Virus record (IMG/VR): IMGVR_UViG_3300027994_000006
Coordinates: 16,898 to 80,897 of that record
Length of the DNA stretch: 64,000 bases
Source of the DNA: a virus
Taxonomy: Duplodnaviria; Caudoviricetes
Strand: one strand, 5' to 3'
A model generated the notes under the pieces. It was not told where the DNA came from. It ran no database searches and saw only the letters and a list, made by a program, of their open reading frames with translations. Numbering within the stretch: the stretch's first letter is position 1; every line of letters begins with the position of its first letter. This document shows, in pieces, positions 27,407-50,280 of this stretch. Both the position numbers and the translations under genes were made by a program.

Positions 27407-27411
27407 TCTGA

Positions 27412-28197: not shown

Positions 28198-28210
28198 ACT
28201 TTCTAAATAT

Positions 28211-28250
28211 TAAGCAAAAAGGCCATGGCGCAGTTGCGAGGTTACATTTG
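28211..28250 (+). promoter_or_regulatory. Late-class promoter TAAGCAAAA-N23-TACATTTG (terminase operon)
   Basis: Same geometry; 15 nt before ATG 28266. Confidence 0.75.
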
Positions 28251-28254
28251 TTTT

Positions 28255-28294
28255 CAAAGATATATATGAACGCACACAAAAACCTTTTTGCTAA
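28255..28294 (-). promoter_or_regulatory. Late-class promoter TTAGCAAAA-N23-TATCTTTG (tail operon)
   Basis: One mismatch in the upstream box, exact spacing; fires towards the 28197 gene. Confidence 0.6.
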
Positions 28295-28676: not shown

Positions 28677-28680
28677 TAGG

Positions 28681-29253
28681 ATGGCAAAGCAAAGGAAAAC
28701 TTTTGTGGAAAAAGGTAGGGAAGAGATGCACGACTTCGTAGTAAAGGCGATTGATGATCTTCTTGCTGTACTTGATTCTAAAATTGAATTTCCTACTGAT
28801 AAGGATGGGTATGTATTAGAGCATAAAATGTTTCAAGTCGTCCAATCCAGAGAGCAGGTTTATAAATCGGCTTGCGAACTAATAGACGAAATAAATCTGG
28901 ATGATAAAAAAGACCAAGCTTATAAAAATAAAATCATTAAAGGTCTTGAAACAACTTGGCACGAATTGACAAAAGTTGCTACGAGAAACATTGGAGAATA
29001 TAAAGCCAATTCATTAGAAGAAATAATAATGGATAGGGATTTAACAGATGAAGAAAAAAGACAGAAAGCCAGAGAAAGCGTTACTGACGACAGACTAACA
29101 TCAGTTTCAAAAGCCAAGGCCTTATCAATAAGAGTTTCTTACCAAATCCTTGACAGAATATCACTTTTAGAAGATCCGGATGGTGCAAACGATGAGATCC
29201 TTAAAAACTCATTAGCACCAAATATAGCAGAGAAGTATGTTGAAAACAATTGA
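28681..29253 (+). CDS. terS: Putative terminase small subunit
   Basis: Helical 190 aa, overlapping the terL start; assignment is positional. Confidence 0.5.
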   Translation: MAKQRKTFVEKGREEMHDFVVKAIDDLLAVLDSKIEFPTDKDGYVLEHKMFQVVQSREQVYKSACELIDEINLDDKKDQAYKNKIIKGLETTWHELTKVATRNIGEYKANSLEEIIMDRDLTDEEKRQKARESVTDDRLTSVSKAKALSIRVSYQILDRISLLEDPDGANDEILKNSLAPNIAEKYVENN

Positions 29254-31504
29254 TAGATCATACAGAAGAAATATTCATAGGGTATTGGAAAACCAAATAC
29301 CTCAAGCCGTCATTGATAAAAAAAACAAAGACAAATCTTGGGAGTACAGGCTATATCCGGAATATGAAACTGTTGTCATTTCAAAAGATGGCACGATTGG
29401 TCAAATAATAGAAATCAATGGACTAAACATTGCGCTTCCGGCTCAACCAGATATTGTTCGATGGGAAGATATACCGCAGGAAGACCAAAAATGGCGACGC
29501 TACGATGTTCCGAAAGAACTAATGCACTTCGATAAGTATTTCAAAGACGAGCCAAATCCAGAATCAAAATTAACCGAAGTCTATAAAAAACACAGAAAGT
29601 TTATAGACGATGATATGAGAAGAAAGAAGTATGGCGACTTCTTTATGAATGATGGTGAAGTAATATACATTCCTGGAAACTACTATTTCTTTTTACAACA
29701 TTACAAACTTACCGATATGCGGAGGTACGGAGATTTCCGTATGCCACAGAGAGATTATTTTATCTTTTTGGAAGCTGTATTCGCTGATGAAAGATGTATC
29801 GGAATTTTGCTTTTAAAATCAAGACGTTCTTCTTTCTCAACATCTTCAGGTTCAGTCGTTTTAAATAAAGCAATTACTTGGAAGAGCGGCTTTTTTCCAA
29901 TTGTGTCCAAGAAAGATACAGATGCTCAGACGTTGTTTGACCGTCACGTAGTAAAACCATTCCTAAACCTACCTAAACACCTTCAGCCACAAAGAACCGG
30001 AGAGGTTGTTCCAAAGAAAATATTAGAGTTCTCATCTCCTAAAAAGAAACTGACAACTAATAATAAATCAGATAGCAGCAGCGATGGACTTGATTCTATC
30101 ATAACCTTTTATGCAACAACAGTTGATGCTTATGATGGTACGCAGGTTACACTCTCAATCAACGATGAAATAGGTAAATTCAAGAGTGTGGATATTAATG
30201 CCTATTGGGAACAGCACCACAGACTTTGTCACGAGGTAGGAAGCGAGATTGTTGGAAAGGCGATTTGTGGAAGCACAGCGAGTTCTCCAAATAAAGGAGG
30301 AAAGAACTACGAGAAATTCTACGAAGAATCAAAACTGACAAGCCGTGGAGAATCCGGATTTACAAAAACAGGATTATATGGGATTTTCATTCCTGCAGAT
30401 TATACAACAATGGGATTCTTTGATGAGTTCGGATATGTAATCTATGACAATCCGGAATTCCCTATTCTGAATGAACTTGGAAAATTAGTTTACATCGGTG
30501 TAAAACAATATCTCGACAATAAAGAAGCTGAATGCGGAGATGACATTCAGAAACTAAATGAGAGAAAAAGAAATAATCCTCGTGTAGACACAGATGCATT
30601 CTTAGATGAGGAAGCAAGTAATATGTACGCAACACCTGGAATGGTAAGCACAATTAATTATCTGAAAGCAAATAACAATAATCCGGAAGTTCAAGGTTCC
30701 ACTTTCCGATTTGATCTTTACTATAAGGATAAGGAAAATAATATTGTGGAAATGAAACGCCACTCAAAAGGAAAATTTCTTGCAGTTTCACAACTTCCGG
30801 TTCCCTTAGAATTTAGAAACCAATTTGTGATAAAGGACGGGAAACGTGCGCCAGTCAATACACATCTTGGAGCATTTGGTTGTGACCCGTACGCAGCAGA
30901 CAGAACAAAATACAACAACGGTTCTAAGCAAGGATTTGTAGGCAAAACCACAAATGATTTCAATTTACCAGAACATCAAAAAAGAAAGGTTTTTTTATTC
31001 TATAACTACAGGCCTAACACAAGAGATGAAGCAGAAGAAGATGTAATTATGGCTTGTCTATACTTATCAATGCAGGTATTTCCGGAGATAAACAAGAAAA
31101 GTCTTGTTGAGAAGATGTACACACGTGGATTGAGAAAATATGTGATGGATAATCCATTAAAAAAGAAAAAAGATCTAACGCCAGATGAATTAAAATTTGG
31201 TGGAATGATAAGTTCAAATGCTGGAAATAGTATTCCGGAACAAGAATCTGCACTTGAAACATCTATCCAATCTGATGTTCACGAATCTATTGAGCATCCG
31301 GAGGAACTGAAATATCCGTTTTTAGAACTCAACGAACATATCGCCTCTTACACCAGAGAGAATAGACAATCAAAAGATGTCGTGGTAGCAGCGCAATTGG
31401 TAAATATTGCCACAGGAAGAGAAATAAAACATAAAGAACCAATCACAATACAAACAGCCAATCCGGTTGATCTTGTAAAATTATTTGAATACGACCAAAA
31501 CTAA
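29237..31504 (+). CDS. terL: Terminase large subunit
   Basis: Walker A-like LLLKSRRSSFST, Walker B LSINDEIGK, ICGST coupling motif, RNase H-like GCDPY. Confidence 0.9.
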   Translation: MLKTIDRSYRRNIHRVLENQIPQAVIDKKNKDKSWEYRLYPEYETVVISKDGTIGQIIEINGLNIALPAQPDIVRWEDIPQEDQKWRRYDVPKELMHFDKYFKDEPNPESKLTEVYKKHRKFIDDDMRRKKYGDFFMNDGEVIYIPGNYYFFLQHYKLTDMRRYGDFRMPQRDYFIFLEAVFADERCIGILLLKSRRSSFSTSSGSVVLNKAITWKSGFFPIVSKKDTDAQTLFDRHVVKPFLNLPKHLQPQRTGEVVPKKILEFSSPKKKLTTNNKSDSSSDGLDSIITFYATTVDAYDGTQVTLSINDEIGKFKSVDINAYWEQHHRLCHEVGSEIVGKAICGSTASSPNKGGKNYEKFYEESKLTSRGESGFTKTGLYGIFIPADYTTMGFFDEFGYVIYDNPEFPILNELGKLVYIGVKQYLDNKEAECGDDIQKLNERKRNNPRVDTDAFLDEEASNMYATPGMVSTINYLKANNNNPEVQGSTFRFDLYYKDKENNIVEMKRHSKGKFLAVSQLPVPLEFRNQFVIKDGKRAPVNTHLGAFGCDPYAADRTKYNNGSKQGFVGKTTNDFNLPEHQKRKVFLFYNYRPNTRDEAEEDVIMACLYLSMQVFPEINKKSLVEKMYTRGLRKYVMDNPLKKKKDLTPDELKFGGMISSNAGNSIPEQESALETSIQSDVHESIEHPEELKYPFLELNEHIASYTRENRQSKDVVVAAQLVNIATGREIKHKEPITIQTANPVDLVKLFEYDQN

Positions 31505-31511
31505 AACATAA

Positions 31512-33902
31512 ATGATAACACAATACGGCATATACAAATTCCCAAATGAAATGGTATCAAACGAAAAGAAGAAATCCTTTGAGTTTGGTAGAGATTTCGG
31601 CTCAGCTATTTGGAGTGAGTGGGAAGGAAAATTCTATTCAAGAAATCTTAAACACAACCTTTGGCGTAAGTATGCAATTGGTGAACAGGATATTACCAGA
31701 ATAGAGAAAAACATTCAGAGGAAATATATCAAAAAAGAATTTCTGCACTACGATAAAGAAGACCGTATTAAAGATTTAGCTTGGTTGCTACGTGAGTTTA
31801 AAAACTCGGTGGATATGAAAGAATTCATTCCTGTTGTGAAGGCTACAGATCCGTTTGCAATGGAAATCAAGGACAATCGTAAGAATGAGAAAATGAAGTT
31901 GTTCTATGCAAAAGATTTTTTAGAACAAGCAGCTCAACTTAATGGCGGACAATCGCCTATACCATTAGATACAATTCCGCAATCCAAAGAACAAGTTGAC
32001 TTGGAAGAGGAAACAGCAAAACCTTTGAGAGTAGAACGTGGAGAATTGAAAGCATTGGATTTTTTCTGCCTGACGAATCGCTTTGATTTAATTCAGGACG
32101 AAGTTTTTGATGATGCTTTGGAAGTCAACAAATTAATTTCAAAAGTTACCACCGACCCGATTGAAGGAATCAAGATGAAAAGAATCCATCCTGATAATTA
32201 TGTAGGCGACGAGAAGAATGCAGACAAATATTTTACTAAAGCTACCTATCACGGAGATGTTGACCATATCACAGTTGGAACTTTTAGAAACATAGCTTCA
32301 GAATCAGGATTAAAATTTACAGAAGATCAAATCAGAAAAATAGCCGGATGTTCAACTCTGGAAGAACTGAATGACAACATCATTATCAAAGTTATTTTTT
32401 ACGAATTCAAAACATATTTCTTAGACGTTACAAAAAAGAAAGTCAACAGAAATACAAAGGCCATTTCTTTAATTGATAGAAGTAATGATATTGGCACTGA
32501 AAAAGAATATAATCCAAAACAATCATCCGATAAATCTGAAAAAATAGAAGAGAATTACGATGTATGGTTTGAAGGAATTATGGTTCTTGATGCAGACAGA
32601 ACAATTATTCGCCATAGATTAATTAAAAATCAGCCAGCATACAAGGGAAAAACACTTTCTTCCTATGTAGTTTGCAAACCAAGAAAGGTTGGAATCGTAG
32701 AAGAATTAATTGCAAGGATTGATTCTATGACCGAACTCCGATTGAGATTGCTACATTTCAGAAATACACTTCGTGGAAATACACTCAATATCTATCAGGA
32801 TGAGATTACCGATGTTCATTTGAATGGTAAGGATAAACCGCCTTTGTCTCCGGAAGAAGTATTATCATTTCTATTGACATTAGGATTCAACTTCATCAAG
32901 ACAAGGGATAGTGAAGGCGAAGAAATTCCTGGTGGAAAAACAAATTTCTCAGAGACACCAGAAAATATTCCTCGTACATTAATGCAGTTGGGAAATGAAT
33001 ATCTGCAGGAGGAACAAAAACTTTACAGAGCTTTTGGCGCATATCAATATAACCAAGTAAAGTCAGATCCGAAAACAAATGGAATCAACGAACCTTACAA
33101 GCTAACGGATAATACAGCAATGCGTGATTACACAAATTGTTTATTCGAATGGTCAAGACAAAACCTTCAGGTCATTAGTGCAAGACTGAATGATGCGATT
33201 GAGTTCCCTTATGTAAAACAAATGCTTGAGGATAATTTAGGCGACGAGGACGTAAATGTTATGTCTCAATATATGAAGGACAGAAAGCAACATTACTTTG
33301 GTTTATATCTGGATTATATTCCGTCTCAGCAAGAAAGATTGGATTTTGCATTGGGTGTGAAACAGCACGTTCAACAAGGACAATTGACGGTGGCTGACGA
33401 ATGGGATCTGATGATGATTCGAAATCCAAATCAGGCAAGAGCAACATTAGCATTACGATTAGAGGCCAATAGAAAACGAAACGAGCAGTACGAATTAGAT
33501 AAAGCACAACAATCGCAAAATGCTAATATCGAAGCATCAAATGTAGCTTACCAAAACAAAGCGAAACTGAGCGAACAGGAACATCAGCAGAAATTGCAGT
33601 TGGAGCAGTATAAATTCAACAACGAATCTTTTTTATTACAAAAAGATGGTGAGATTAAAATCAACACTACCAATATTACAGCCAATGCAAAAGTGACAGG
33701 CGACCAATTCCGTCAGCAGTTTGAAGCTGATCTCACAAGATTCAAGAAGGAACAGGACGCTAAAAATAGACAGGATGCGATTAATCTGTCGTACGATAAA
33801 CAAGAAAAACTTTACAAATTAAAGCAAGGTGAGATTGATTCTATCGATCAAGAATCGCCTACACAACCAATAGACCTATCAACTTTACAAAACACAATAT
33901 AA
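31512..33902 (+). CDS. Portal protein
   Basis: 796 aa right after terL; EFIPVVKATDP, MKRIHPDN and long C-terminal coiled-coil barrel, as in Bacteroidota podovirus portals. Confidence 0.8.
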   Translation: MITQYGIYKFPNEMVSNEKKKSFEFGRDFGSAIWSEWEGKFYSRNLKHNLWRKYAIGEQDITRIEKNIQRKYIKKEFLHYDKEDRIKDLAWLLREFKNSVDMKEFIPVVKATDPFAMEIKDNRKNEKMKLFYAKDFLEQAAQLNGGQSPIPLDTIPQSKEQVDLEEETAKPLRVERGELKALDFFCLTNRFDLIQDEVFDDALEVNKLISKVTTDPIEGIKMKRIHPDNYVGDEKNADKYFTKATYHGDVDHITVGTFRNIASESGLKFTEDQIRKIAGCSTLEELNDNIIIKVIFYEFKTYFLDVTKKKVNRNTKAISLIDRSNDIGTEKEYNPKQSSDKSEKIEENYDVWFEGIMVLDADRTIIRHRLIKNQPAYKGKTLSSYVVCKPRKVGIVEELIARIDSMTELRLRLLHFRNTLRGNTLNIYQDEITDVHLNGKDKPPLSPEEVLSFLLTLGFNFIKTRDSEGEEIPGGKTNFSETPENIPRTLMQLGNEYLQEEQKLYRAFGAYQYNQVKSDPKTNGINEPYKLTDNTAMRDYTNCLFEWSRQNLQVISARLNDAIEFPYVKQMLEDNLGDEDVNVMSQYMKDRKQHYFGLYLDYIPSQQERLDFALGVKQHVQQGQLTVADEWDLMMIRNPNQARATLALRLEANRKRNEQYELDKAQQSQNANIEASNVAYQNKAKLSEQEHQQKLQLEQYKFNNESFLLQKDGEIKINTTNITANAKVTGDQFRQQFEADLTRFKKEQDAKNRQDAINLSYDKQEKLYKLKQGEIDSIDQESPTQPIDLSTLQNTI

Positions 33903-34024
33903 TGAGCAATTTTTTAAACATTAAGGCATTGGCCAATAGAACACAAAAAGGGATTCAGAACCAACTGAAACCCATCATCGTAAAGAAAACAAAATCCGGA
34001 TGCAAAACCTGCGGAAATAAGTAG
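33902..34024 (+). CDS. 40-aa peptide ending GCKTCGNK (absent from ORF track)
   Basis: TAATG coupling to the portal stop; CxxC at the C-terminus. Confidence 0.55.
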   Translation: MSNFLNIKALANRTQKGIQNQLKPIIVKKTKSGCKTCGNK

Positions 34025-34136
34025 TAACTTTAATAAAAACAAAGCAATATTAAAGTAAACAAAATCGTAATTGGCGACACCGTTATCGGAGATATTTTCG
34101 CAATATAATACAAACAACTTCAACGGAAATTATTTA

Positions 34137-34161
34137 AAGGACAGCTTATTTAGTTGTCCTT
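34137..34161. terminator. Bidirectional terminator between convergent operons
   Basis: AAGGACAGC-TTATTTA-GTTGTCCTT with A/T tracts on both sides. Confidence 0.7.
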
Positions 34162-34184
34162 ATTTTATATTTTAGCTATTACTT

Positions 34185-34499
34185 TTAAGTCCAATGTGGC
34201 AATGAGATTAATTTGATTTCCGGAACTGAGATTTCTGGATATAGTTCAGTGAATTTATCAATGATTTCCTGCTTGTTATAATTCAAACTGATCTCGCTTG
34301 ATTCTTCGCTGCCTAATTCCTTAATGAAACCAAAGTATGTATATTCCCCGTTCATACCATCAGTTAAAAACCTCAATTCATCTTCTTTTCTTGAGTAACT
34401 ATCATATTTGTCATAATAATCACTTTCCCAAAAATCAGTTGTGAATTCACTATCTAATTTAAATCCGTAGATTAAATAATTCGTTACTTGTGTTGACAT
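34185..34499 (-). CDS. Hypothetical phage protein
   Basis: 104 aa, A-rich start, operon context. Confidence 0.7.
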   Translation of the reverse strand: MSTQVTNYLIYGFKLDSEFTTDFWESDYYDKYDSYSRKEDELRFLTDGMNGEYTYFGFIKELGSEESSEISLNYNKQEIIDKFTELYPEISVPEIKLISLPHWT

Positions 34500-34640
34500 G
34501 ATATTTTGATTTTAATTTTTACTTATTACTTTGGTCTTCGCCTCTTCCAAGGACTTTAATTTGATCTCAAAGGCATTATCTCCGTAGACTAAGTTGTCGG
34601 TTGTGGTCCAGTTGGCTTTTATTTGGTCTATTGCGCTCAT

Positions 34641-34868
34641 TTATTCAGCAATTTTTAAATCTATTTTCTCCAATTCTTTTTCAGAATAGAATTTTCGCTT
34701 CTTGTAATTATTGAATTTTGCAACGATTCTATCTCTTTGGGTTCTGCTTAAATTAGATTCCTTTCGCTGGATTCTGATATAGTCTCCGATAATATTTCCC
34801 GATTCTACTTTGTCACGATGCTCCAGAAGTTCTTTAGGCATCATTGATTTTATTAAGTGTTCTATCAT
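34641..34868 (-). CDS. Hypothetical protein
   Basis: 75 aa, operon context. Confidence 0.6.
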   Translation of the reverse strand: MIEHLIKSMMPKELLEHRDKVESGNIIGDYIRIQRKESNLSRTQRDRIVAKFNNYKKRKFYSEKELEKIDLKIAE

Positions 34869-34951
34869 CGTCTTTTATTTTTAGGTTTAATAAATTTAGG
34901 TTTGTTATTCTTTCTTCCGTTGGGTAGAGTGATGTATTTCTTCATAGGGAA

Positions 34952-35875
34952 TTATGAAAAGCAGAGGCAAGGAAATAAATCCAAAGTCTCTTGTTTAAGA
35001 TAAATTTTAGCTGACTTCCAAAATATATTTGATGGGATATGCTCGTTCGCTGGAATGCCTGCTCTCTTCATTTTGTGAAATTTAATCTCCAAATCTTTAA
35101 GGAATTCTTTACCGAAGCTATATCCAATTCTCTGTTCTGAAAGTTTAGCTCTTTCAAACACTTCGTAATCGTGGACATAGACACAATACCAATGTTGCTT
35201 TCCTGCTTTCAAACACCCTGTACAATTGGCGTGCTTCCATACTGTATAAGTATTTGGTGGTTCAATTCCTATTTCTTTTGTAGAAACGATGGTTCGTTCA
35301 AAACAATCCCGATTTTCATAATTTTCAACTTTTGCAATTGCTTTTGGGTTTTTGTTTCCTGCTTTTTGAAGATAATTCAAAAGACTTTCAAATCTACCAT
35401 CACCCCACAACGCAATTGGATAATCCGAAGCAACACCGCTATCGTTGAGAATTGTCTTTCTTCTATCAACACGCTCCAATTCTTCTGCATCAAAGCCGTA
35501 ATAGACACATATAAATTCCTTTTCGAGCGTTTCTAAGTATTCGTAGAAAGGTTCTGTTTTTAATCGGCTTGTGCAAAGTATCTGGCGTCCGTAAGGATTA
35601 ACGAAAGTTCCTGCTTCTTCACAAACTTCAAACTGATTTGGAATCAACTTTTCATCTTTAATACCTTTAATATTTGCATAAGTAATACTTAACCCTAAAT
35701 ACTCAGCAACTTCAATTTTGAATCTTTTAATATCCACGTTTTCATATCGGGGATTAATATTATGATTCAACAATACTACATTTTCATTACCATATCTTCT
35801 AACTGTTTCAATAGCGACAATTGCTGACGAGTGACCGCCAGAATAACAGATGATATGTTTAATTTGAGATTTCAT
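34952..35875 (-). CDS. PAPS-reductase/DndC-like PP-loop ATPase with Fe-S-type cysteines
   Basis: YSGGHSSA PP-loop; ILCTSRLKTEP; HANCTGCLKAG; terminal CLC. Confidence 0.8.
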   Translation of the reverse strand: MKSQIKHIICYSGGHSSAIVAIETVRRYGNENVVLLNHNINPRYENVDIKRFKIEVAEYLGLSITYANIKGIKDEKLIPNQFEVCEEAGTFVNPYGRQILCTSRLKTEPFYEYLETLEKEFICVYYGFDAEELERVDRRKTILNDSGVASDYPIALWGDGRFESLLNYLQKAGNKNPKAIAKVENYENRDCFERTIVSTKEIGIEPPNTYTVWKHANCTGCLKAGKQHWYCVYVHDYEVFERAKLSEQRIGYSFGKEFLKDLEIKFHKMKRAGIPANEHIPSNIFWKSAKIYLKQETLDLFPCLCFS

Positions 35876-35895
35876 AGTATTTATTTTTTAAGCAA

Positions 35896-36528
35896 TTAAA
35901 TTGTTTGAGGAATATTCCGGGATGATTTTCTCGGTTTCATTTCCCAATTGTAGTCCAAGTTATAATTGTGAGAATTGCCTTCTAAATCGTATTTGTCTTT
36001 GCTGAAAGATAATTTTGCAAACGTCCGCATTCCTTCAAAAGCATAGTCCTCATTTACTTTGTGAATATTGAATTGATTCAGCCTTAGAATAGATTTATTC
36101 GGAAACATCACTTCATTTTCAAGCAATGCCTGCTCTTCCATTTCCTTCAAAGAAAGACTATCATCCAAAGTCAAATCAAAATCCGTTGAATTAAAAATAG
36201 TTGGATTATTGTCGCTCCAGATATAATTAATATCATCTGTTAAAAATCCATCTGAATGATAACCTGGTCTATTGAATTGCTGTTGCTTATTCTGATACTG
36301 TCTTTTAACTGTAAGATAAATATAGGATTCTATAAACTCCGGAACGCCAAAGTTGTTTTTAAAATCGCTCATACAATGAACAATAAAAGGGTAGAAGACT
36401 CCTAATCTTGTCTCAACATCAAAGATTTTTTGACCCTTTAATTTGATTGGAAGATATTGGTAGAACATCATTTCCTTACAATCTATTTCTAATCTTCTAA
36501 CAACTTTTGGTAATTCTCCGTAGTTCAT
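35896..36528 (-). CDS. 2OG-Fe(II) dioxygenase-like protein
   Basis: NRPGYHSDG (HxD), distal NIHKV (H) and RTF (2OG-binding R). Confidence 0.65.
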   Translation of the reverse strand: MNYGELPKVVRRLEIDCKEMMFYQYLPIKLKGQKIFDVETRLGVFYPFIVHCMSDFKNNFGVPEFIESYIYLTVKRQYQNKQQQFNRPGYHSDGFLTDDINYIWSDNNPTIFNSTDFDLTLDDSLSLKEMEEQALLENEVMFPNKSILRLNQFNIHKVNEDYAFEGMRTFAKLSFSKDKYDLEGNSHNYNLDYNWEMKPRKSSRNIPQTI

Positions 36529-36538
36529 AAATTAAATT

Positions 36539-36934
36539 TTAAAATGGCAACGATCCATCATCTTCATCCTCAGCAAAAACATTCTTACTATTAAATGCCT
36601 CATCCGCACTTGCAGTCGGTACGCTCTTTCCAGATGTTTCAGCTCCATCGCCAACCTTCTCAATTCTCCAGGCCACAATGCTGTTGAAATATTTTACTTC
36701 TTTGGTCGGGCTTTCCCAACGTCTCCCGTTAATATTAAAGTGAACCGTCACTTCGTCGCCTACCTTATAATGATCTAAAAGGTCTATCTTATCCTTTACA
36801 AATTCAATGTTTGGATATTGTGGATATTGTCCACTTGTCTCAAGTATTAAAGATCGCTTCTCAAATCCGCTGTTGAAAGTTTCTAACGCAAGTATCTCGT
36901 GTACTTTTCCGGTTATTTTGTTGCTGTCGCTCAT
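36539..36934 (-). CDS. DUF3127 single-stranded DNA-binding-like protein
   Basis: KVGDEVTVHFNINGRRW...YFNSIVAWRIEK OB-fold signature; acidic tail DDGSLPF. Confidence 0.85.
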   Translation of the reverse strand: MSDSNKITGKVHEILALETFNSGFEKRSLILETSGQYPQYPNIEFVKDKIDLLDHYKVGDEVTVHFNINGRRWESPTKEVKYFNSIVAWRIEKVGDGAETSGKSVPTASADEAFNSKNVFAEDEDDGSLPF

Positions 36935-36969
36935 TTTATTTTTGTTTTATGTAGGCGATTCCTACGTTG

Positions 36970-37704
36970 TTATTTTTTATCTATGATTACTATTTTTCCT
37001 CCTACCATAGTCCCACTTTGTTTAAAGCTTCCCTTCTCAATATCCAGAACTTTAGCATCTACTTTTTGTAAGAAAATTTTAAAATCGACTTGCTTTTTCT
37101 GATTGCCATTTACCCAAGATTCAGAAGTGATACAAACCAATCTTCCGCCTTCTCTCAAAACATCGTACATAAATAATAAATGATCAATGTCTTGATTTTT
37201 TGTAAATGGAGGATTAGCAATGATTTTATCATACATTTTATCCTGATGCTGAAGAAAATCTTCTCCCAGAAATTTGAATTTAAGATCAGATCTTTTTAAA
37301 ATTATAGCATTTACATCCATTAACTCATAACAATCTGGAATAGATTTACAAGCTTTGTTTATAGCCTTAATAATAGCACCCTGTCCTGCACTCGGTTCCA
37401 ATATATCGTCTGAACTTTTTAAATCTGCATACATTACCAATTCATCAGCTAGATCATCTGGAGTTCCAAAAAACTGAAACTCTTTTTTAAGATTTCTTTT
37501 CTCCCCGTTAGCAATTTGGCGGAGTAAGTCTTTCGGATCAGTTTGAAATACAAATCCTTGTACCTTTCCACCTTTCCATTTTCCTCCAATTAGCTCAAGT
37601 TTATTTTTAACTTCCGTATATTCATTTCTACCTAATTGAACATCAGGTAATTTCACGACAGTGTTTTCAACTGTACAACTTTTTAATACATCTTCTGTTG
37701 TCAT
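36970..37704 (-). CDS. N6-adenine/N4-cytosine DNA methyltransferase
   Basis: LEPSAGQGAI (motif I) before IIANPPF (motif IV). Confidence 0.85.
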   Translation of the reverse strand: MTTEDVLKSCTVENTVVKLPDVQLGRNEYTEVKNKLELIGGKWKGGKVQGFVFQTDPKDLLRQIANGEKRNLKKEFQFFGTPDDLADELVMYADLKSSDDILEPSAGQGAIIKAINKACKSIPDCYELMDVNAIILKRSDLKFKFLGEDFLQHQDKMYDKIIANPPFTKNQDIDHLLFMYDVLREGGRLVCITSESWVNGNQKKQVDFKIFLQKVDAKVLDIEKGSFKQSGTMVGGKIVIIDKK

Positions 37705-37751
37705 ATATTTATTTTTAATGTTACTTTATCACTTTTTTAATACCATACTAA

Positions 37752-38537
37752 TCAACGGTAAGCCGCCGTGACCATAGACGGTTTATTTTCATAGATATAA
37801 TTCTTATATAAGAAACAATGATTACTTATAGCTTCGGCTTTCTTTAAACCCAAATAATGGGAAAAACTAACTGCGTAAGGATAAATTCTCGCCATTTCAT
37901 TAAAAACTTTGATAAGACCTCGTTCTTTTAGGAACTTTTTGTAGGCCGTTATCGTGTTTTTAGATTTTCTTTCTAAAAGTTCACCCATTCTTTTTATAGA
38001 AAGCAACATTTGACTATTGTAATCCATCTTACCGCCCTTCTTTAAATAAAGTTTCAGCCTTTTGAAATCTTGCAATGTGCAATCTCCTTTTGGTTGATTC
38101 TTTTGTTGATTAATGTAATTGTAGCGTTTAATGCGTTCAATAGTTTTTTCCTGTTGTACTATGTTGGAAAGAACCGGGATCGTGTTTAAAAAATATTTTA
38201 TGTCAGAATACTCTGATATGTTTCTGGGAACGAAAACAAAATTGGACTCGTCAGGGCGCATTTTAGCGTTTGTGATAAGTCGCATTTCATTAGCATAGAA
38301 TTCTATTAGTTTATTTTCTTTAAGGATTCTAACGTGTTTTTGTAAGGCTGTGAGGCTGATATTATATTTATCAGCAATCGCCTTTATCATCTTGGTCTTT
38401 TCTCCTGAACGGAAATAATAATTTTTGCCCGTATGAGATTTAAAAAGGAAAACAAACATAGCAAGAGAGGGAAGCCACTTTTCTCTGTGTGCCTTTGCAT
38501 ATACCTTCCCGTTAATCCTTACTATGATATTTTCCAA
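37752..38537 (-). CDS. Winged-HTH protein; replication initiator candidate
   Basis: IADKYNISLTALQKHVRILKENKLIEF plus a second HTH (ELLERKSKNTITAYKKFLKERGLI); first gene of the DNA-metabolism operon. Confidence 0.5.
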   Translation of the reverse strand: MENIIVRINGKVYAKAHREKWLPSLAMFVFLFKSHTGKNYYFRSGEKTKMIKAIADKYNISLTALQKHVRILKENKLIEFYANEMRLITNAKMRPDESNFVFVPRNISEYSDIKYFLNTIPVLSNIVQQEKTIERIKRYNYINQQKNQPKGDCTLQDFKRLKLYLKKGGKMDYNSQMLLSIKRMGELLERKSKNTITAYKKFLKERGLIKVFNEMARIYPYAVSFSHYLGLKKAEAISNHCFLYKNYIYENKPSMVTAAYR

Positions 38538-38680
38538 GAAATAGCCTTTACCCTTAATTATCTAATAGATCATTTGTGAAGATGAATATTTTGAAGAACC
38601 GGGGCAAAGGCAATATATATTTTTGTGCTTTGCAGATATTAAAAATGAGTTCTTCAAAATATTTCTTCATCTTCACGATT

Positions 38681-38714
38681 CAAAGATAAACATAATTGTT
38701 TAATATCCGTGCAT
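38681..38714 (-). promoter_or_regulatory. Operator-promoter, 34-bp class (ATGCACGGATATTAAACAATTATGTTTATCTTTG)
   Basis: Palindrome TAAACA-N4-TGTTTA overlapping the -7 box; six copies in the window. Confidence 0.75.
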
Positions 38715-38791
38715 ATTTCGAAAAATTGTTTTAACTTTGTTGAAAAGTATTTCAAGAGAGATACTATTTAGATAAATCAAACAAAAAAGAT

Positions 38792-39073
38792 ATGACACGA
38801 CCAAGAATTCCTACAGCATTACAAGACGATGTAAAAATTTTCTGCAAAAAGAAAAAAGAAGAACGGTACACGCTGCAATACATTGGAAACATTATTGGAA
38901 AAGACCATTCTACTGTAATAAGCCATATTAGAAAGTATGATGACTACTACGAAAAGTACAAAGATTTCCGTGAAAAAGCTGATGCATTCTCAGAAGATAA
39001 ATTTCTGGAAGATTTTCAGGAATATAAAGTTTCCTTGGCCAACAAAATCTTAAATCAAATCCATTATCTATGA
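38792..39073 (+). CDS. HTH protein resembling the DnaA C-terminal DNA-binding domain
   Basis: YTLQYIGNIIGKDHSTVISHIRK pattern. Confidence 0.7.
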   Translation: MTRPRIPTALQDDVKIFCKKKKEERYTLQYIGNIIGKDHSTVISHIRKYDDYYEKYKDFREKADAFSEDKFLEDFQEYKVSLANKILNQIHYL

Positions 39074-39279
39074 AAAAGATAATCACCTTATTTATCCTTA
39101 TGGTAGTATTTGCGCTGTTGCAAATGGTGTTTCTCACATCATTGTATTATTTAGGCGAGAAAGATGTCTTTAATTTTGAGACAATTGTCTATCCGCTTTT
39201 AGGACTATGTATTTTTCTAACAGCCCTGATTTATGTGTTTGAACCGCTGTTATTTTTTTTTGTCAAATATTTAAAGTAG
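39070..39279 (+). CDS. Small two-TM membrane protein
   Basis: Two hydrophobic stretches; ATGA overlap with the upstream gene. Confidence 0.65.
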   Translation: MKKIITLFILMVVFALLQMVFLTSLYYLGEKDVFNFETIVYPLLGLCIFLTALIYVFEPLLFFFVKYLK

Positions 39280-39282
39280 GGG

Positions 39283-39600
39283 ATGATAGCAATTCCAGTA
39301 GATCAGCCGTCGCCTACACAATACAGAACTTTAATGTATAACTATGGTTTGCTTACAGTTTTATACATCTTAGAACACTTTGAAGCAATCGAAGACTACG
39401 AGGAATGCGAAATGATAATCCAGGCGATAAGGTCAGAAGAGAAAAGATTGGAGACAACGCTATTCACAAAAGCATCAAAGTAGGCAATAGAAAAAGTTTT
39501 GGAAACTTACCGGAGCTTTGGATTAACCGGAAAATATGCCGTAGCCAATTCTAATGATTACGCAGAAATGTTTATTAAAAAATTAAGAAATACATTATGA
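39283..39600 (+). pseudogene. Hypothetical gene interrupted by in-frame TAG (39481-39483)
   Basis: Frame stays open for 38 further codons, to a TGA that overlaps the next ATG (ATGA at 39597-39600). Confidence 0.6.
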
Positions 39601-39812
39601 AAAAAAATAAAGTAAAAATTACAAATCTTGATATAGGAGAAATTAAAGAAACTATTACCTATAAAAAATTATTCTTTCAGTTTAATGATAGTGAACCAGA
39701 AGAATTTTTGAACGGTCTATTTGAAAAATTTCAAATTACCCTAAAAAAAGATGGAGATGAATTTCAAATTGAATCTAAAGATGGAAATAAATTCAAATTA
39801 TTTTTAAAATAA
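39597..39812 (+). CDS. Hypothetical protein
   Basis: 71 aa, A-rich start. Confidence 0.65.
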   Translation: MKKNKVKITNLDIGEIKETITYKKLFFQFNDSEPEEFLNGLFEKFQITLKKDGDEFQIESKDGNKFKLFLK

Positions 39813-39828
39813 TTATATCTTAAAACCC

Positions 39829-39836
39829 TATATTTG
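39829..39836 (+). promoter_or_regulatory. Host-type -7 box TATATTTG of aspS
   Basis: 25 nt upstream of the aspS ATG; has neither the operator palindrome nor the late box. Confidence 0.65.
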
Positions 39837-39861
39837 CAACCGCAATTTCTAAACAACCAAA

Positions 39862-41613
39862 ATGTTCCGTACACACACAAACGGCGAACTAACGCTGAAA
39901 AATCTGAATGAAAAAGTAACACTTTCCGGCTGGGTACAAACCATCCGTGACAAAGGTTTTATGATTTGGATAGATTTGCGAGACCGTTACGGCATCACCC
40001 AATTAGTTTTAGACGAAGACAGAACTTCCAAAGAACTTTTGGAAACTGCTAAGAAATTAGGTCGTGAGTTTGTCATCAAAGTTGAAGGAACTGTAATCGA
40101 ACGTACTTCCAAAAACCCAAAGATTGCAACCGGAGACGTAGAAATCTTAGTTGAAACGCTAATTATTTTAAATGAATCTCAACTTCCACCATTCACCATC
40201 GAAGACGAAACCGACGGTGGCGAAGAATTGAGAATGAAATACAGATACCTCGACATCAGAAGAAATCCGGTAAAAGACAAATTGATTTTCCGTCACAAAA
40301 TGGCGCAAAAGGTACGAAACTATCTTTCCGAAGAAGGTTTCATCGAGGTTGAAACGCCGGTTCTAATCAAATCTACTCCGGAAGGTGCGAGAGATTTCGT
40401 AGTTCCAAGCAGAATGAATCCGGGACAATTTTACGCACTTCCGCAATCTCCTCAAACTTTCAAACAATTGTTAATGGTTGGCGGAATGGACAGATATTTT
40501 CAAATCGTGAAATGTTTCCGTGATGAGGATTTAAGAGCCGACAGACAACCGGAATTCACGCAAATCGATTGCGAAATGGCGTTCGTAGAGCAGGAAGATA
40601 TTATGAATGTTTTCGAAGGAATGACAAAAGTTCTTTTGAAAGACATCACAGGAAACGAATTCCAGGATTTCCAAAGAATGACTTTCGCCGATGCGATGCA
40701 AAAATACGGAAACGACAAGCCGGATATCCGTTTCGGAATGGAATTCCACGAGTTAAATGATTTAACGAAAGGAAAAGATTTAAAAATATTCGACGAGGCT
40801 GAATTGGTTGTCGGAATCAATGTTGAAGGGATCGCAGATTACACCAGAAAACAAATCGACGAATTGGTGGATTGGGTAAAACGCCCACAAATAGGCGCAA
40901 CTGGATTGGTTTGGATTAAATTCCAAAATGATGGCGTTGTAACTTCGTCTGTCAATAAATTTTATTCTGAAGAAGATTTGAAAAAAATCACTGAAGAATT
41001 CGGAGCAAAAGCTGGAGATTTAATTTTCGTAATGTCCGGAAACGCAGATAAAGTGAGAACCCAACTTTCCGCTTTGAGAATGGAACTCGGAAACCGTCTT
41101 GGATTGAGAAAAGGAAACGAATTTGCACCACTTTGGGTTGTAGATTTCCCGTTGCTGGAATTTGATGAAGAATCCGGAAGATACCACGCAATGCACCACC
41201 CTTTCACGTCTCCGAAAACCGAAGATTTCCATTTATTAGAAACGGACCCAGGTAAAGCAAGAGCCAACGCATACGATCTGGTTTTGAACGGAAACGAAAT
41301 TGGTGGCGGTTCTATCAGAATTTTTGACAGAGATCTGCAGTCGAAAATGTTTGACCTTTTAGGATTCTCCAAAGAAGATGCAGAAGCACAGTTCGGATTC
41401 TTGATGAATGCCTTCAAATATGGTGCTCCACCTCACGGAGGATTGGCTTTCGGATTTGACAGATTGGTCGCCATCCTTGATGGAAATGAAGTGATTAGAG
41501 ATTACATCGCTTTCCCGAAAAACAATTCCGGACGAGATGTGATGATTGATGCGCCTGCACCGATTCATCAGGAACAGTTGACGGAACTGGAACTTAAATT
41601 GGATTTAAAATAA
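39862..41613 (+). CDS. aspS: Aspartate--tRNA ligase (bacterial class IIb, full length, probably discriminating)
   Basis: [10 protein letters not shown] start, OB-fold [10 protein letters not shown], motif 1 [17 protein letters not shown], motif 2 [21 protein letters not shown] insert, HHPFT, motif 3 [10 protein letters not shown]; 583 aa. Confidence 0.98.
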
Positions 41614-41616
41614 AAA

Positions 41617-41638
41617 GAGCGACACCTAAGCATCGCCC
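41617..41638 (-). terminator. Terminator of the head operon, abutting the aspS stop
   Basis: Minus strand GGGCGAT-N8-GTCGCTC, then a T tract formed by the aspS stop region. Confidence 0.55.
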
Positions 41639-41665
41639 TAAAAAAGAAAACCACACGACAACCGT

Positions 41666-42358
41666 TTACTGTTGTTTTATTTGTTCCTCCTGCTTTAGTT
41701 GTGTGGATAGTTCCAAAGCAAATTGATCGTCCAAATTAACCCCGAAGTATGCCATCAGTTCTATCAATACCGCCTGCATCATACTCGGGTGTAAATCGAT
41801 GTCCTGAAAGTCACTTGCGCTAATATCATAAACTTCCTCTTCAAAGAAAATCTTTGTCGTGAGTTTTGGCACTTTGGCCTTTCTAAAATACACCAATGAT
41901 ACTTTACTCGCTGAAGGACTTAGTTTCAGTTCGTTGTCATTAAGAGTATAGATAGGTAGGCAACTCGTAGGTCGCAGTTCTGGTAATCTGGATAGTTTAT
42001 TATAAACAAGTAGATCTGTTTTCTCAGCTTCTGCCTTATCCGTAAAAACAGAATTAGCAAATAGAAAATCAGGAATCGCCTGAATAACATCAGCCTTGCC
42101 AGCCGTTAAGGTAACATCAGCTTCTGAAATATAATATTCCATAGCCTGCTTCATATACATCGACTCATCGCCATAGTTTGGGCTGTCCATCCAACGCATC
42201 TTTCGGAGATTCAACTTCCGGAAGTTTGGGAACAGGCTCATTTGCACATTACTTACCACAGGCGCAAGAATACTATTCTTCTCATCAGTAGAAAGTTTTC
42301 CCATCTGTTTGTGGTTTGTGATGTCATCTATGGCGTTACTTAGAGCGACGATCATCAT
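41666..42358 (-). CDS. Head-tail adaptor / ring protein candidate
   Basis: YFRKAKVPK and DIDLHPS...LIELMAY adaptor-like pattern; downstream of the capsid gene. Confidence 0.55.
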   Translation of the reverse strand: MMIVALSNAIDDITNHKQMGKLSTDEKNSILAPVVSNVQMSLFPNFRKLNLRKMRWMDSPNYGDESMYMKQAMEYYISEADVTLTAGKADVIQAIPDFLFANSVFTDKAEAEKTDLLVYNKLSRLPELRPTSCLPIYTLNDNELKLSPSASKVSLVYFRKAKVPKLTTKIFFEEEVYDISASDFQDIDLHPSMMQAVLIELMAYFGVNLDDQFALELSTQLKQEEQIKQQ

Positions 42359-43107
42359 TACTTAGCTGGTGTTGCAGTTGCAGGATCTTCTACTTTTTTA
42401 TGAGTAGCTTTTTCCTTCATCATTGTTTGAATTTGTTTTCTGGTTTCACGGCCTTCTGTTTCCTTATAGAAATCTACCATTGCCTGTACTGCAGTTGAAT
42501 CTCTTGGGATAGAAACGATCTTTACCTCATTATGTCCCCAACGTACTTCCGTAGCATTATCCTCGATGATTCCCTGCGCAATAGCAAGACCGATTTCGAA
42601 TTTTTGATTCTTAGTTTTATCGGTCAAAAGTTCTTTCACTTCATTAGGAAATTTCTGAGTGTGACCCAAAACATCCAATTTGATTCCGGCATTATCACCT
42701 TCCTTCGCTTTAATTACAGCGTCTCTACCGAATAGGTTCCAAGCTAATGACAGTAATTCAGGTTGTGTAAGGTCGGTAACTTCCAACATCACTTTCAAGT
42801 CTTTTGTAGCCTCTTCAGCTTTAGCTTCATTCTCAGCAACCGGATCATAGATTTTGATTTTAGTTCCGAATCCAGGTTTAGACTCAATAAATTTTTGCCA
42901 TGTAACATTATCTGTAGAAAGTAATTGTGAACCTACAAAGATTCTTGTTTCAGTTACTTTTCTGGTTCCTTGTTTTTTTAGTTCGAGTTCTGTGTCGCCT
43001 TCTACCAATCGATAGGTTTTATAGCCGTCATCAGTTTTTACTTCGTGTCTTGGACTCAGATAAGTTCTTTGGTAGCCCTTATCAAATAAATAGGTTTTTA
43101 AAGCCAT
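42358..43107 (-). CDS. Conserved protein downstream of major capsid
   Basis: 249 aa; FEIGLAIAQGII...VRW motif; highly-expressed-type codons. Confidence 0.6.
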   Translation of the reverse strand: MALKTYLFDKGYQRTYLSPRHEVKTDDGYKTYRLVEGDTELELKKQGTRKVTETRIFVGSQLLSTDNVTWQKFIESKPGFGTKIKIYDPVAENEAKAEEATKDLKVMLEVTDLTQPELLSLAWNLFGRDAVIKAKEGDNAGIKLDVLGHTQKFPNEVKELLTDKTKNQKFEIGLAIAQGIIEDNATEVRWGHNEVKIVSIPRDSTAVQAMVDFYKETEGRETRKQIQTMMKEKATHKKVEDPATATPAK

Positions 43108-43146
43108 TGTATTAAATTGTTTATGTGGTTTGTTTTGATTAAAGAA

Positions 43147-43177
43147 ATAAAGCGGAGTGTTTTAATCTCCGCTTTAT
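43147..43177 (-). terminator. Terminator after major capsid gene
   Basis: ATAAAGCGGAG-N9-CTCCGCTTTAT, perfect 11-bp stem. Confidence 0.8.
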
Positions 43178-43186
43178 GTTATTGTT

Positions 43187-44554
43187 TTAAGCGTTTACGC
43201 CTATGATGAATTTATCTGCACCGAAAACAGCAACTGACATTTTGTTTTTGTAAGTCACTTTTACTTTTCCGCAGTTATAATCATTCTCATTAGAATCTCT
43301 TTTGAACTTGTACGGATCATTTGCGTTACCGAACCAGATCAAAGTTACTCTACCTAATGTTCTTGCTTTTCCGTTTAGCGTTACATTTACTTTATCAGCT
43401 GGTGTGATAAGGAAGTTGTAAGCTTTACCAAGTTTCTCAGATCCTCTACCGGATAATCCTTTCCACTCTCTGAACATCAGTTTTACTCCGAAGATGTCAA
43501 CGCCTTTATATCCAAGATACATAAGGTCGTTTTGATGATTTTCAAAAGGCTTCCATTCAATTCCTGCGTTGTCTCTCTGGATCAACATAAGTTTTGTATA
43601 CTGTGAAGGCGATGCATCAAGATACGCTTCGTAGATGTCCTGATCTTTCAAATACTGAGTTACAGCAATTAGATCCTCAAGAGTTTCCAGTTCACCTTCA
43701 AACTTCACTGCTTTGTCATCAATGAATTCAAAGATTCCTCTCATATTCTGCGTGATGTCACCACCTACAGTTCTCTTTTCCCAAGCCAAAGAAGTATCAG
43801 ACTTCTTAGCCAATCTTTTCATCGCATCATTTAGTTGTACTGATGGTGTAAAAGTGTACTCTCCGTAGTTTTTCTCAGGGAAAGCGTCCCATCCGCCTTC
43901 TGCAACCATAGTTTCCTCGCAGAACTCGTGTCCGTCGCCTAAACTTTTAAAGCCGTTCTCGTAAGTTGGAGAATAACCTTTCCATCCTAGAACAGAAGGA
44001 CATTCGCAATGATCAAGATTATCACCCAAGAAGATGATGTCAAGATTGGTTGTTGCAATCGTCCAGGCAGCACCTGCTTCTCTGTTTACGACAGTGATGG
44101 TTTTACCGTCTGAACTGATTGCTGTTACTTCCCCGATTTCTCTTTTACCTGTATTATCTACAGCTAAGATTCTCTCGCCTAAATTAGTGAAGAACTGCGC
44201 ATTTTCCGGACGGCACAAATCAATATCATACGTGTCTGTTGGAATTGCAGAGGTATTGATTGTGAAGTTATTTCCGGTTCTTGAAACAAGATTTTGTCCA
44301 ACGATTTGGATCACATTTGTTTCAGATGGTTTTTCTTTCCAAGAAACCTGATCGGCTGCTACTGTGATTTCATTTCCAGAAGCCATAAGGAATCCGGCGT
44401 ATGTATCGTAAGCTACTTCTTTAGCTTCTACTGTACCTAAGTGTTCAGGTGCTACAGCACAAGAAATTTCCATCTCTGTTACTAATGCTCTTCTTCCCTT
44501 TGGAAGCGGTTGTTGAAACCTTGCGTAATCTACTTGTGGTATTACTATTGCCAT
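43187..44554 (-). CDS. Major capsid protein
   Basis: 455 aa after an acidic scaffold and followed by a strong terminator; MRGIFEFI P-domain-like motif; biased codons. Confidence 0.8.
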   Translation of the reverse strand: MAIVIPQVDYARFQQPLPKGRRALVTEMEISCAVAPEHLGTVEAKEVAYDTYAGFLMASGNEITVAADQVSWKEKPSETNVIQIVGQNLVSRTGNNFTINTSAIPTDTYDIDLCRPENAQFFTNLGERILAVDNTGKREIGEVTAISSDGKTITVVNREAGAAWTIATTNLDIIFLGDNLDHCECPSVLGWKGYSPTYENGFKSLGDGHEFCEETMVAEGGWDAFPEKNYGEYTFTPSVQLNDAMKRLAKKSDTSLAWEKRTVGGDITQNMRGIFEFIDDKAVKFEGELETLEDLIAVTQYLKDQDIYEAYLDASPSQYTKLMLIQRDNAGIEWKPFENHQNDLMYLGYKGVDIFGVKLMFREWKGLSGRGSEKLGKAYNFLITPADKVNVTLNGKARTLGRVTLIWFGNANDPYKFKRDSNENDYNCGKVKVTYKNKMSVAVFGADKFIIGVNA

Positions 44555-44581
44555 TTTTTCTTTGTGTTTTTTTAGTTAATA

Positions 44582-45676
44582 TTAGTTAAAGGCAGAATTT
44601 CTCCTGTTTTCCAGATCCTTTTTATACGCTTCTGCTGCGCCTGTGGAAGTAGCTTGAACGGTTTGCACAACATCAGGACTTACGTTTCTTCGTAGCTTGT
44701 CTCTTTTCGCTCTGTCATTCAGGACAGCCTGCTCAATGAGGAAGTTGGTCATAGCCTGCGACGTTGGCGCATAGGCTTTTGTGACCGTTTCGATAAAACC
44801 CTTAGCATTTGTAAGCTGGTTTTTTTCGTTGAAGAAACTGTTGATGAGTACGCCCACATCCTCGCTGACGGTTCTTGCGTGCTTTAAATATTCCTCATCA
44901 GGAGTATATTGCACATTCACCGCATCGATACCAAGCTCTTTGTTGCCTTGATACGATAATTCTACAGTCGTTAGTTTCGGTAGTTCCTGATAGACTTGTT
45001 CTCTGTTGAAGGTGACGAGCGTCTGCTGTTGTTCTTGCGCTTGTTGAGCGATTTCCTCGTAAGTAAATCGTTTTTCAACTTGGCTTTCAACGTCAGATGT
45101 ATTGGATGTAAATTCTTGAAGGTTTCCATCGTGCCATTTGCTGGCTTTACGAAGTTCACCTGCCATCTTAGCTTTTTGTCTAAGAATCTCCTTTTCATCC
45201 AACTCGCCAGAAAAATCATCATCGTCATCGCTAACTGCGACCTCCAGTTCGCTCATTGCAAAAGCAATCTCATCTTCATTCATACCTTCTTGTTCAGAAT
45301 AGTACTTATGAAGGAGTTCTTTAGCATCGAGGTCTTTGGCAGGTGTTGTCAGGAACTCAAATTCTTTCCAATCATCTTTTCCGGTCTTCTGTACAAACTC
45401 GTTGTATTTCGCCACTTTTTCAGAAGCGAAAGAATTTGTTTTTTGTTCCGGAACTTCTGTTGGAGTTTCCGTAGCATTTTTATTTGGATTATCTGTTTCT
45501 GTTTCAGGTGTTGCAATTTCTGCAACAGTTGCCGTTGGAGTTTCAGTCGCAGTAGTTTCTGGTTGCGTTTCTGTAGTCTCCGTAATAGGCGTTTCAGTTG
45601 GTTGTTGTGTTTCTTGTGTAGGCGACGCCTGTGAGGGTGCGCCTTCATTCATAAGATTACTTAATGTGTCTCCCAT
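44582..45676 (-). CDS. Capsid scaffolding protein
   Basis: Thr/Glu/Pro low-complexity N-terminus, acidic helical body; directly upstream of the capsid gene. Confidence 0.7.
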   Translation of the reverse strand: MGDTLSNLMNEGAPSQASPTQETQQPTETPITETTETQPETTATETPTATVAEIATPETETDNPNKNATETPTEVPEQKTNSFASEKVAKYNEFVQKTGKDDWKEFEFLTTPAKDLDAKELLHKYYSEQEGMNEDEIAFAMSELEVAVSDDDDDFSGELDEKEILRQKAKMAGELRKASKWHDGNLQEFTSNTSDVESQVEKRFTYEEIAQQAQEQQQTLVTFNREQVYQELPKLTTVELSYQGNKELGIDAVNVQYTPDEEYLKHARTVSEDVGVLINSFFNEKNQLTNAKGFIETVTKAYAPTSQAMTNFLIEQAVLNDRAKRDKLRRNVSPDVVQTVQATSTGAAEAYKKDLENRRNSAFN

Positions 45677-45763: not shown

Positions 45764-45797
45764 ATGAATGGATTGTAAACAAATATGATTATCTTTG
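45764..45797 (+). promoter_or_regulatory. Operator-promoter, 34-bp class (ATGAATGGATTGTAAACAAATATGATTATCTTTG)
   Basis: Back-to-back with the head late promoter; drives the HNH/ncRNA operon. Confidence 0.75.
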
Positions 45798-46317: not shown

Positions 46318-46439
46318 GGGAAAGTAGCTCAGAAATAGGTTAGAGCGATTGAACTTAATTGGTTTGGAAAACCAGCATTTAAAAAAGCTATTAAATGTGT
46401 CTCCAGTAGGTCAGCGGTTCTATTCCGTTCTTTTCCACA
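46318..46439 (+). ncRNA. tRNA-like RNA 2 with about 50-nt expanded anticodon loop
   Basis: Acceptor GGGAAAG/CTTTTCC+ACA; TAGCTCAG...GGTTAGAGC D arm; AGGTC variable loop; T arm AGCGG-TTCTATT-CCGTT; two hairpins in place of the anticodon loop. Confidence 0.75.
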
Positions 46440-50246: not shown

Positions 50247-50280
50247 ATGAATGAATTGTAAACATTTATGTTTATCTTTG
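50247..50280 (+). promoter_or_regulatory. Operator-promoter, 34-bp class (ATGAATGAATTGTAAACATTTATGTTTATCTTTG)
   Basis: Perfect TAAACA-N4-TGTTTA plus -7 box. Confidence 0.8.

Follow-up and report, generated by a model that had tools for sequence, protein, structure and literature searches.

The 64,000-nucleotide stretch of viral DNA analysed here (the window; bases 16898-80897 of an 80,897-bp IMG/VR virus record) carries a full-length aspS gene at 39862-41613 on the plus strand, whose 583-aa product was classified from the ORF list, Pfam, NCBIfam and structure alignment as a bacterial-type, predicted discriminating aspartyl-tRNA synthetase (AspRS). The protein scores 818.6 bits against the NCBIfam AspRS equivalog NF001750 (cut-off 443) and 716 bits against the aspS_bact equivalog TIGR00459 (cut-off 373.85), with the aspS match spanning residues 1-581, and contains an N-terminal OB anticodon-binding domain (tRNA_anti-codon, PF01336, residues 19-102), the class II core (tRNA-synt_2, PF00152, residues 121-554, E = 5.5e-120) and the bacterial GAD insertion domain (PF02938, residues 314-400). 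It was aligned over its whole length with solved AspRS structures, most closely with 6WOM, and motif 3 (GLAFGFDRL) is conserved in that alignment; class II motif 2 starts at residue 219, and QSPQ (195) and the RDKG position (29-32) were also found. A first-pass annotation, made from the letters of the window, had described a complete 583-aa aspS with its class II motifs, and the Pfam, NCBIfam and motif 2/3 results agree with it. The span it had marked, 39813-41665, corresponds to the aspS ORF plus its two intergenic gaps, of 49 bp after an ORF at 39597-39812 and of 52 bp before the 3′ end of a minus-strand ORF at 41666-42358.

Whether the enzyme discriminates was judged by an asnS/gatB criterion, which is read on the host lineage and not on the enzyme. 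asnS was above its cut-off in 3/3 related host genomes and gatB was found in 0/3, with the control search for gatB positive in 12/14 reference genomes; since the related hosts carry asnS and no gatB was found in them, the lineage is read as one with a discriminating enzyme. The phage protein itself falls below the NCBIfam aspS_nondisc equivalog cut-offs, and it is almost certainly a discriminating AspRS, as had been proposed in the first pass. From its 97-99% identity to the product of the sole aspS found in related genomes, it would be expected to charge host tRNA-Asp.

Upstream of the gene lies a promoter/leader segment (39822-39861, +), which is shared with a sister phage (L012, a 26.8-kb Logan contig from a different sample, reached through a search with the capsid protein) and is absent from chromosomal aspS upstream regions. 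It holds a Bacteroidota-type -7 box, TATATTTG, at 39831-39838; the box reads TATCTTTG in the sister phage, and TAnnTTTG is common to both while the genes upstream of the shared ~40-bp leader differ (a 71-aa ORF in the window, a DNA methyltransferase in L012). No -33 TTTG was found upstream of aspS, and there is no operator palindrome beside the -7 box. The aspS stop is followed directly by a hairpin; box and hairpin are matches to sequence patterns only, and read-through from upstream is possible. The hairpin (41616-41639, minus strand), found by a terminator scan and the only terminator-like match within 38400-41900, is the predicted terminator of the head operon that converges on aspS, and is an element of the phage backbone, conserved in L012, in a JGI contig (L013) and in a relative without aspS (L109). 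The aspS stop region, read as its complement, supplies the T tract. Both the host-type -7 box and the formation of the T tract by the aspS stop region had been noticed earlier; the box is kept in L012, and the hairpin, running from 41639 to 41616, agrees with the second observation.

The 3′ capture junction (41607-41615, +) was located by alignments to chromosomal loci and to L109. Chromosomal ...TTAAAATCA... and backbone ...CTAAAAAAG... join at a TAAAA microhomology within an A-run, creating a new TAA stop and removing the last residue, so that the chromosomal ending ...K-S-stop becomes ...K-stop and the phage copy ends in the A-run of the terminator. The backbone of L109 is common with the window only as far as this A-run and the hairpin adjoining the aspS stop. 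The microhomology suggests that illegitimate recombination took place where the portal and head operons converge. As a marker at the protein level, the C-terminal truncation is weakened, because the last residue varies and several chromosomal AspRS also stop at Lys; the junction stays diagnostic of phage aspS at the DNA level. Among metagenome contigs the 3′ junction pattern matched only in L013, and the exact 5′ junction pattern gave no match; among viral contigs no match to the 3′ pattern was found.

The best 120 protein matches listed are 90-99% identical to the phage AspRS, and the named ones are chromosomal AspRS of Epilithonimonas and Chryseobacterium; the closest among the matches listed come from an 895-kb contig (99%) and from E. 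xixisoli (97%). Compared with chromosomal Epilithonimonas aspS, the phage gene encodes a protein of equal length and domain set that lies within 1-3% of its counterpart (97-99% identity), at 91-92% DNA identity. This DNA similarity is confined to the coding sequence (39859/39862-41611), beginning at the ATG and stopping in the last codons, and the phage leader has no similarity to chromosomal aspS upstream regions. The chromosomal gene sits in a conserved Thx-aspS-...-RecQ setting, downstream of a divergent Thx-like small ribosomal-protein gene and with RecQ 2-4 kb further downstream; the phage copy has another leader, and none of this neighbourhood (Thx, RecQ) was found inside the window. In a maximum-likelihood tree of codon-aligned aspS, both phage copies, from the window and from L012, are nested within the Epilithonimonas group, and GC3 of the phage aspS remains at the host level. 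On these comparisons the phage aspS is judged to be host-derived, from Epilithonimonas. The assembly index held no record with the window's exact AspRS, and a search for lysogens with a second aspS copy found none among 201 species-representative genomes of the genus, four apparent double-aspS genomes having proved to be split genes or fragments at contig ends.

By gene content and order, the whole 80.9-kb record is read as a single phage genome belonging to the Cellulophaga phi38:1 (Pervagoviridae-like) lineage. The record's ends (1-202 and 80696-80897 of the record, the latter being 63799-64000 of the window) overlap by 196 bp at 97% identity, within a 60-bp tandem repeat of one gene encoding an LRR-like repeat protein. 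The record is labelled linear and 75% complete, and is probably a complete, circularly closed genome that was broken by the assembler in this repeat; relatives assemble to ~79 kb. No host genes were seen among the ORFs that were examined. The large terminase subunit TerL (29237-31504) and the 230-aa gp95-like protein downstream of aspS (41666-42358) each match 87 phage records with an identical genus breakdown (podoviruses of Flavobacterium, Cellulophaga, Tenacibaculum and Maribacter, of phi38:1 type), and because the two sets agree, one phage lineage is taken to flank aspS on both sides, as the first-pass annotation had it.

Comparison with phi38:1 resolved three structural blocks, comprising gp101 to gp96 homologues at 10525-28197 (-), TerL and portal at 29237-33902 (+), and gp95 to gp92 homologues at 41666-45676 (-), in which gp92-95 and gp96-101 have the sizes and order seen in phi38:1. 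The third block, convergent with aspS, contains gp92, gp93 (likely the major capsid protein, MCP), gp94 and gp95, and was assigned through PHROG structural matches, tblastn to Pervagoviridae and the phi38:1 gene order. TerL and portal, together with two small ORFs (28248-33902, +), are inverted between the gp96-like and gp95-like genes, an arrangement found by lineage comparison. This inversion holds across the lineage (including L110-L113 and L122), while the order in phi38:1 is collinear. The layout is supported by an independent IMG/VR contig that is collinear over 23169-34643, by metagenomic relatives (gp92, MCP, gp94 and gp95 in one direction, portal and TerL in the opposite one, and gp96 in the first again) and by a relative with the same gene order within a 596-kb contig of Chryseobacterium sp. 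DT-3. Given an identity of no more than 23-33% and a TerL-portal block that has been inverted and moved, the phage is placed as a distant phi38:1/Callevirus relative outside the named family Pervagoviridae. Searches for the gp95-like protein in viral contigs and for the capsid protein in genome contigs returned no relatives. The gp101 position is occupied by a 3418-aa protein (10525-20781, -) with a PBECR5 (Barnase-EndoU-ColicinE5/D-RelE-like) nuclease domain at residues 1600-1726 and a GNAT acetyltransferase near residues 1042-1113; it looks polyvalent and is probably virion-borne.

A tyrosine integrase (900-2090, +; Pfam Phage_integrase and Phage_int_SAM_5, PHROG integrase) lies about 38-39 kb from aspS. 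A pattern scan for the palindrome TAAACA-N4-TGTTTA (up to one mismatch) gave six copies, against 0.65 expected by chance, at 38687-38702, 45776-45791, 50259-50274, 59229-59244, 60867-60882 and 63646-63661; the set lies ahead of non-structural operons, and the six are probably operators of one repressor. The integrase, these palindromes and the relative embedded in the Chryseobacterium contig fit a temperate lifestyle. A second tyrosine-recombinase-like gene (62629-63615, +; 328 aa) has Phage_int_SAM_5 and Phage_integrase domains, and five related host genomes lack the putative att 17-mer (724-740). With ARAGORN, neither the window nor the upstream 17.9 kb yielded a tRNA gene, so no canonical tRNA-Asp was identified there. 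A tRNA-like RNA at 46318-46437 (+) matches the full RF00005 model at 36.7 bits (gathering score 29) and has ~52 nt in place of the anticodon loop, and ARAGORN calls no tRNA there; inspected by eye, it shows the alanine-type identity marks of G3:U70 in the acceptor stem and A as discriminator. The RNA is 4.7 kb away from aspS, with no evident link to AspRS.

Throughout the lineage, the junction where the portal and gp95-like genes converge takes up variable cargo. In the window this slot is filled by 7.7 kb, in which DNA-modification genes, an SSB-like gene, an HTH regulator and small ORFs accompany aspS. Outside aspS and its leader, the island (33903-39821; Pfam, PHROG) contains PAPS-reductase-like, SSB-like DUF3127 and DNA methyltransferase genes, a 261-aa HTH regulator and four small plus-strand ORFs leading into aspS, and relatives carry other content in its place or almost nothing: only a 40-41-aa ORF in L110-113, three small ORFs in L122, ~6 kb including a methyltransferase in L014-16, and other small ORFs without aspS in L109, whose capsid protein is 84% identical. 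The palindrome at 38687-38702 lies between the 261-aa regulator and the divergent unit whose last gene is aspS. The minus-strand genes at 34952-37704 encode a PAPS-reductase-like protein (phrog_424), a phrog_1843 protein, a DUF3127/SSB-like protein and a DNA methyltransferase domain, the last having its best PHROG matches in domains of very large phage proteins. Only phages with a capsid protein ~97% identical to that of the window were seen to carry aspS. In the manner of a moron or cargo gene, it lies between conserved phage modules, at a variable site, and is absent from close relatives. Related phages with this site free of the insert, a check suggested in the first pass, are provided by L109, L110-113, L122 and L014-16.

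Since the gene is nearly identical to a chromosomal one that the same samples likely contain, and contigs do break at it, it might have been an assembly chimera, a prophage border or a remnant of specialised transduction. Three of the five contigs with a 97%-identical capsid gene end inside or at aspS, a typical outcome of assembly when the sample also contains a near-identical host copy, and a possible reason for the under-reporting of such genes in phage contigs. Against an artefact, an independent assembly with another allele, L012, reproduces both junctions. L012 matches window positions 46439-39822 collinearly in a single blastn alignment (84% nt), which runs through the head genes, the terminator, aspS and the 40 bp upstream of it before the HSP ends at 39822, and its AspRS (583 aa, same C-terminus) is 91.4% identical in nucleotides and 98.3% in amino acids. 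L013 has the same 3′ junction and 74 identical residues, and in two further contigs an aspS fragment lies at the same 52-bp distance. The insert has no host flank, the window lacks the chromosomal aspS neighbourhood, the phage genome closes on itself and the integrase is 38 kb away. A chimeric or border origin is accordingly rated extremely improbable, and the view of aspS as an internal phage gene rather than a prophage border stands. The recent capture by specialised transduction that had been offered as an option is not supported, given the missing host flank, the distant integrase and an insert common to two phages whose head genes have diverged to dS 0.8-1.3. Anti-defence, translation rescue and lysogenic conversion, also named in the first pass, are candidate roles. 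Two viral contigs encoding 63-67% identical AspRS were uninformative, their flanks sharing nothing with the window phage. GenBank "phage" AspRS matches were mostly unannotated short or host-like records, and MT835528 was rejected as a phage aspS (bacterial-like ORF pattern, record marked UNVERIFIED). The sole annotated phage-borne aspS among the GenBank matches that we take as bona fide is that of jumbo phage MaAM05.

The two phage aspS copies differ by dS 0.51 with dN/dS 0.021, equally low as between chromosomal aspS alleles (0.019-0.047), and on each phage branch 27-30 synonymous codon changes are private, but only 1-3 amino-acid changes are. Because dN/dS is 0.02 at this synonymous distance, the gene appears to have been kept intact, and the pattern indicates long-term maintenance of a host-like aspS in the phage; a neutral passenger would not be expected to stay intact over dS 0.51. 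The comparison with host aspS that had been recommended in the first pass gave 91-92% nt identity and placed the phage copies within Epilithonimonas. That both phages descend from a single insertion is argued from the shared junctions and not from the tree, in which the phage pair has a UFBoot of only 89 and is not clearly united. The five closest alleles (two phage, three chromosomal) are related in a star-like manner with conflicting informative sites, and part of the low dN/dS could therefore come from recombination with host alleles. On that basis aspS might be a neutral passenger that is kept host-like through repeated homologous recombination with chromosomal aspS, and that maybe offers homology for RecA-mediated exchange or integration. 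Besides the star-like relations, the aspS dS lying below that of the flanking head genes of both phages (0.8-1.3), the host-level GC3 and the contig breaks inside the gene would fit such a history. However, no conversion tracts between phage and host alleles were seen (identity is even, at 85-97% along the gene, and shared sites are interleaved), no available chromosomal allele is closer than 92% nt, and the promoter box and both junctions are conserved between the diverged phages, so that we regard a neutral passenger as very unlikely.

The reading that we favour, and hold to be probable, is that aspS is a host-derived moron of an ~81-kb temperate Pervagoviridae-like phage of Epilithonimonas-type hosts, providing a backup AspRS that benefits the lysogen. 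An ancestor of the phage sub-clade would have taken just the aspS coding sequence from Epilithonimonas by illegitimate recombination, with the convergent junction of the portal and head operons, the cargo slot of the lineage, as landing site. The 3′ end would have been joined in the A-run adjoining the head-operon terminator, and on the phage side the captured gene would have acquired a short leader carrying a Bacteroidota -7 promoter box. Its product, predicted to be an ordinary active discriminating enzyme charging host tRNA-Asp, would add to or substitute for the host enzyme. By analogy with known cargo synthetases, the benefit most likely falls at the level of the lysogen, as an extra or back-up AspRS for fitness or prophage maintenance, a level favoured because the gene has its own promoter box without an adjacent phage operator. 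Weighing against this reading, none of the 201 representative genomes proved to be a lysogen with two aspS copies, the tree does not clearly unite the phage copies, and aspS has a lower dS than the neighbouring head genes.

The operator-controlled region at ~38.69 kb could equally drive aspS by read-through, as an early lytic gene. In this case aspS would act as a lytic-phase helper or in counter-defence, expressed early from the promoter at ~38.7 kb and sustaining Asp-tRNA-Asp charging after host expression has been shut off, or under inhibition of AspRS by a factor from the host or a competitor. We consider such a role possible, though somewhat unlikely. It would suit the position of aspS as the last gene of a plus-strand unit that starts just past the palindrome at 38687-38702, one of the six-member set before non-structural operons, and the richness of the island in DNA-modification genes, with two methyltransferases directly upstream in L012. 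An enzyme 97-99% identical to that of the host is, on the other hand, not an inhibitor-resistant variant, the window phage has no tRNA gene by ARAGORN and a single anticodon-less tRNA-like RNA by Rfam, and an Asp-rich phage proteome was rejected as a reason for aspS (Asp 6.2%, versus 6.0% in the host sample). We know of no defence system that targets AspRS. For a lytic role there is the precedent of huge phages, which have been proposed to use their own aminoacyl-tRNA synthetases (aaRS) during takeover (PMC7162821). It is unlikely that aspS serves as an addiction device, with the chromosomal aspS silenced or lost, or as dosage protection of the lysogen or infected cell against an AspRS-directed toxin, e.g. 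a microcin C-type aspartyl-adenylate mimic. If it did, loss of the chromosomal aspS from a lysogen would make the prophage indispensable under addiction, and under either role an essential translation enzyme would be a selectable phage weapon in Bacteroidota.

Housekeeping genes identical to those of a host tend to be written off as contamination when they turn up in viral contigs. Here the junctions, the second phage genome and the dN/dS together show a real, maintained aaRS gene in an ordinary-sized, apparently temperate Bacteroidota phage. With one gene, one slot and natural relatives without aspS, the phage offers a compact system for studying the benefit of one extra synthetase.

Huge phages with genomes >200 kb carry up to 15 aaRS and many tRNAs, the aaRS being "distinct from but related to" host enzymes (PMC7162821), and the 274-kb Microcystis phage MaAM05 has an annotated aspS, whose AspRS is 48% identical to that of the window. 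These resemble the present case in having phage-borne aaRS related to host enzymes; unlike huge phages, the window phage has a single aaRS with 97-99% host identity in a genome of ~81 kb, with no canonical tRNA gene detected. The first-pass statement that known aaRS genes come mainly from giant viruses and jumbo phages is incomplete, as it overlooked glnS of the D6-like phages (PMC6799933). All D6-like, P1-related temperate phage-plasmids, of about 90 kb, carry a host-type glnS that was described as a moron, with a role proposed in host fitness or maintenance by analogy to plasmid cysS (PMC6799933). According to the same source, cysS on a plasmid of Salmonella Typhimurium ST313 was proposed to replace the chromosomal copy in function and thereby to stabilise the plasmid (PMC6799933); it is likewise a second, mobile copy of an essential aaRS, but on a plasmid and not a phage. 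The glnS of D6 and pYU39_89 is the closer likeness, being an intact host-type aaRS moron in a mid-sized temperate phage. It is conserved across its phage group, whereas aspS occurs in a narrow sub-clade and is lacking in relatives with 84% capsid identity; it encodes a class I GlnRS in Enterobacteria, as against a class II AspRS in Bacteroidota; and it resides in P1-like phage-plasmids rather than in an integrase-bearing, podovirus-like lineage. A single host-type aaRS as cargo of a temperate phage is thus already known from D6-like glnS, and is found here with another enzyme, phylum and phage type, and with an unusually clean junction anatomy. Together, aspS of the window and D6-like glnS suggest that temperate elements carry single aaRS genes recurrently, and that such cargo is not peculiar to giant genomes.
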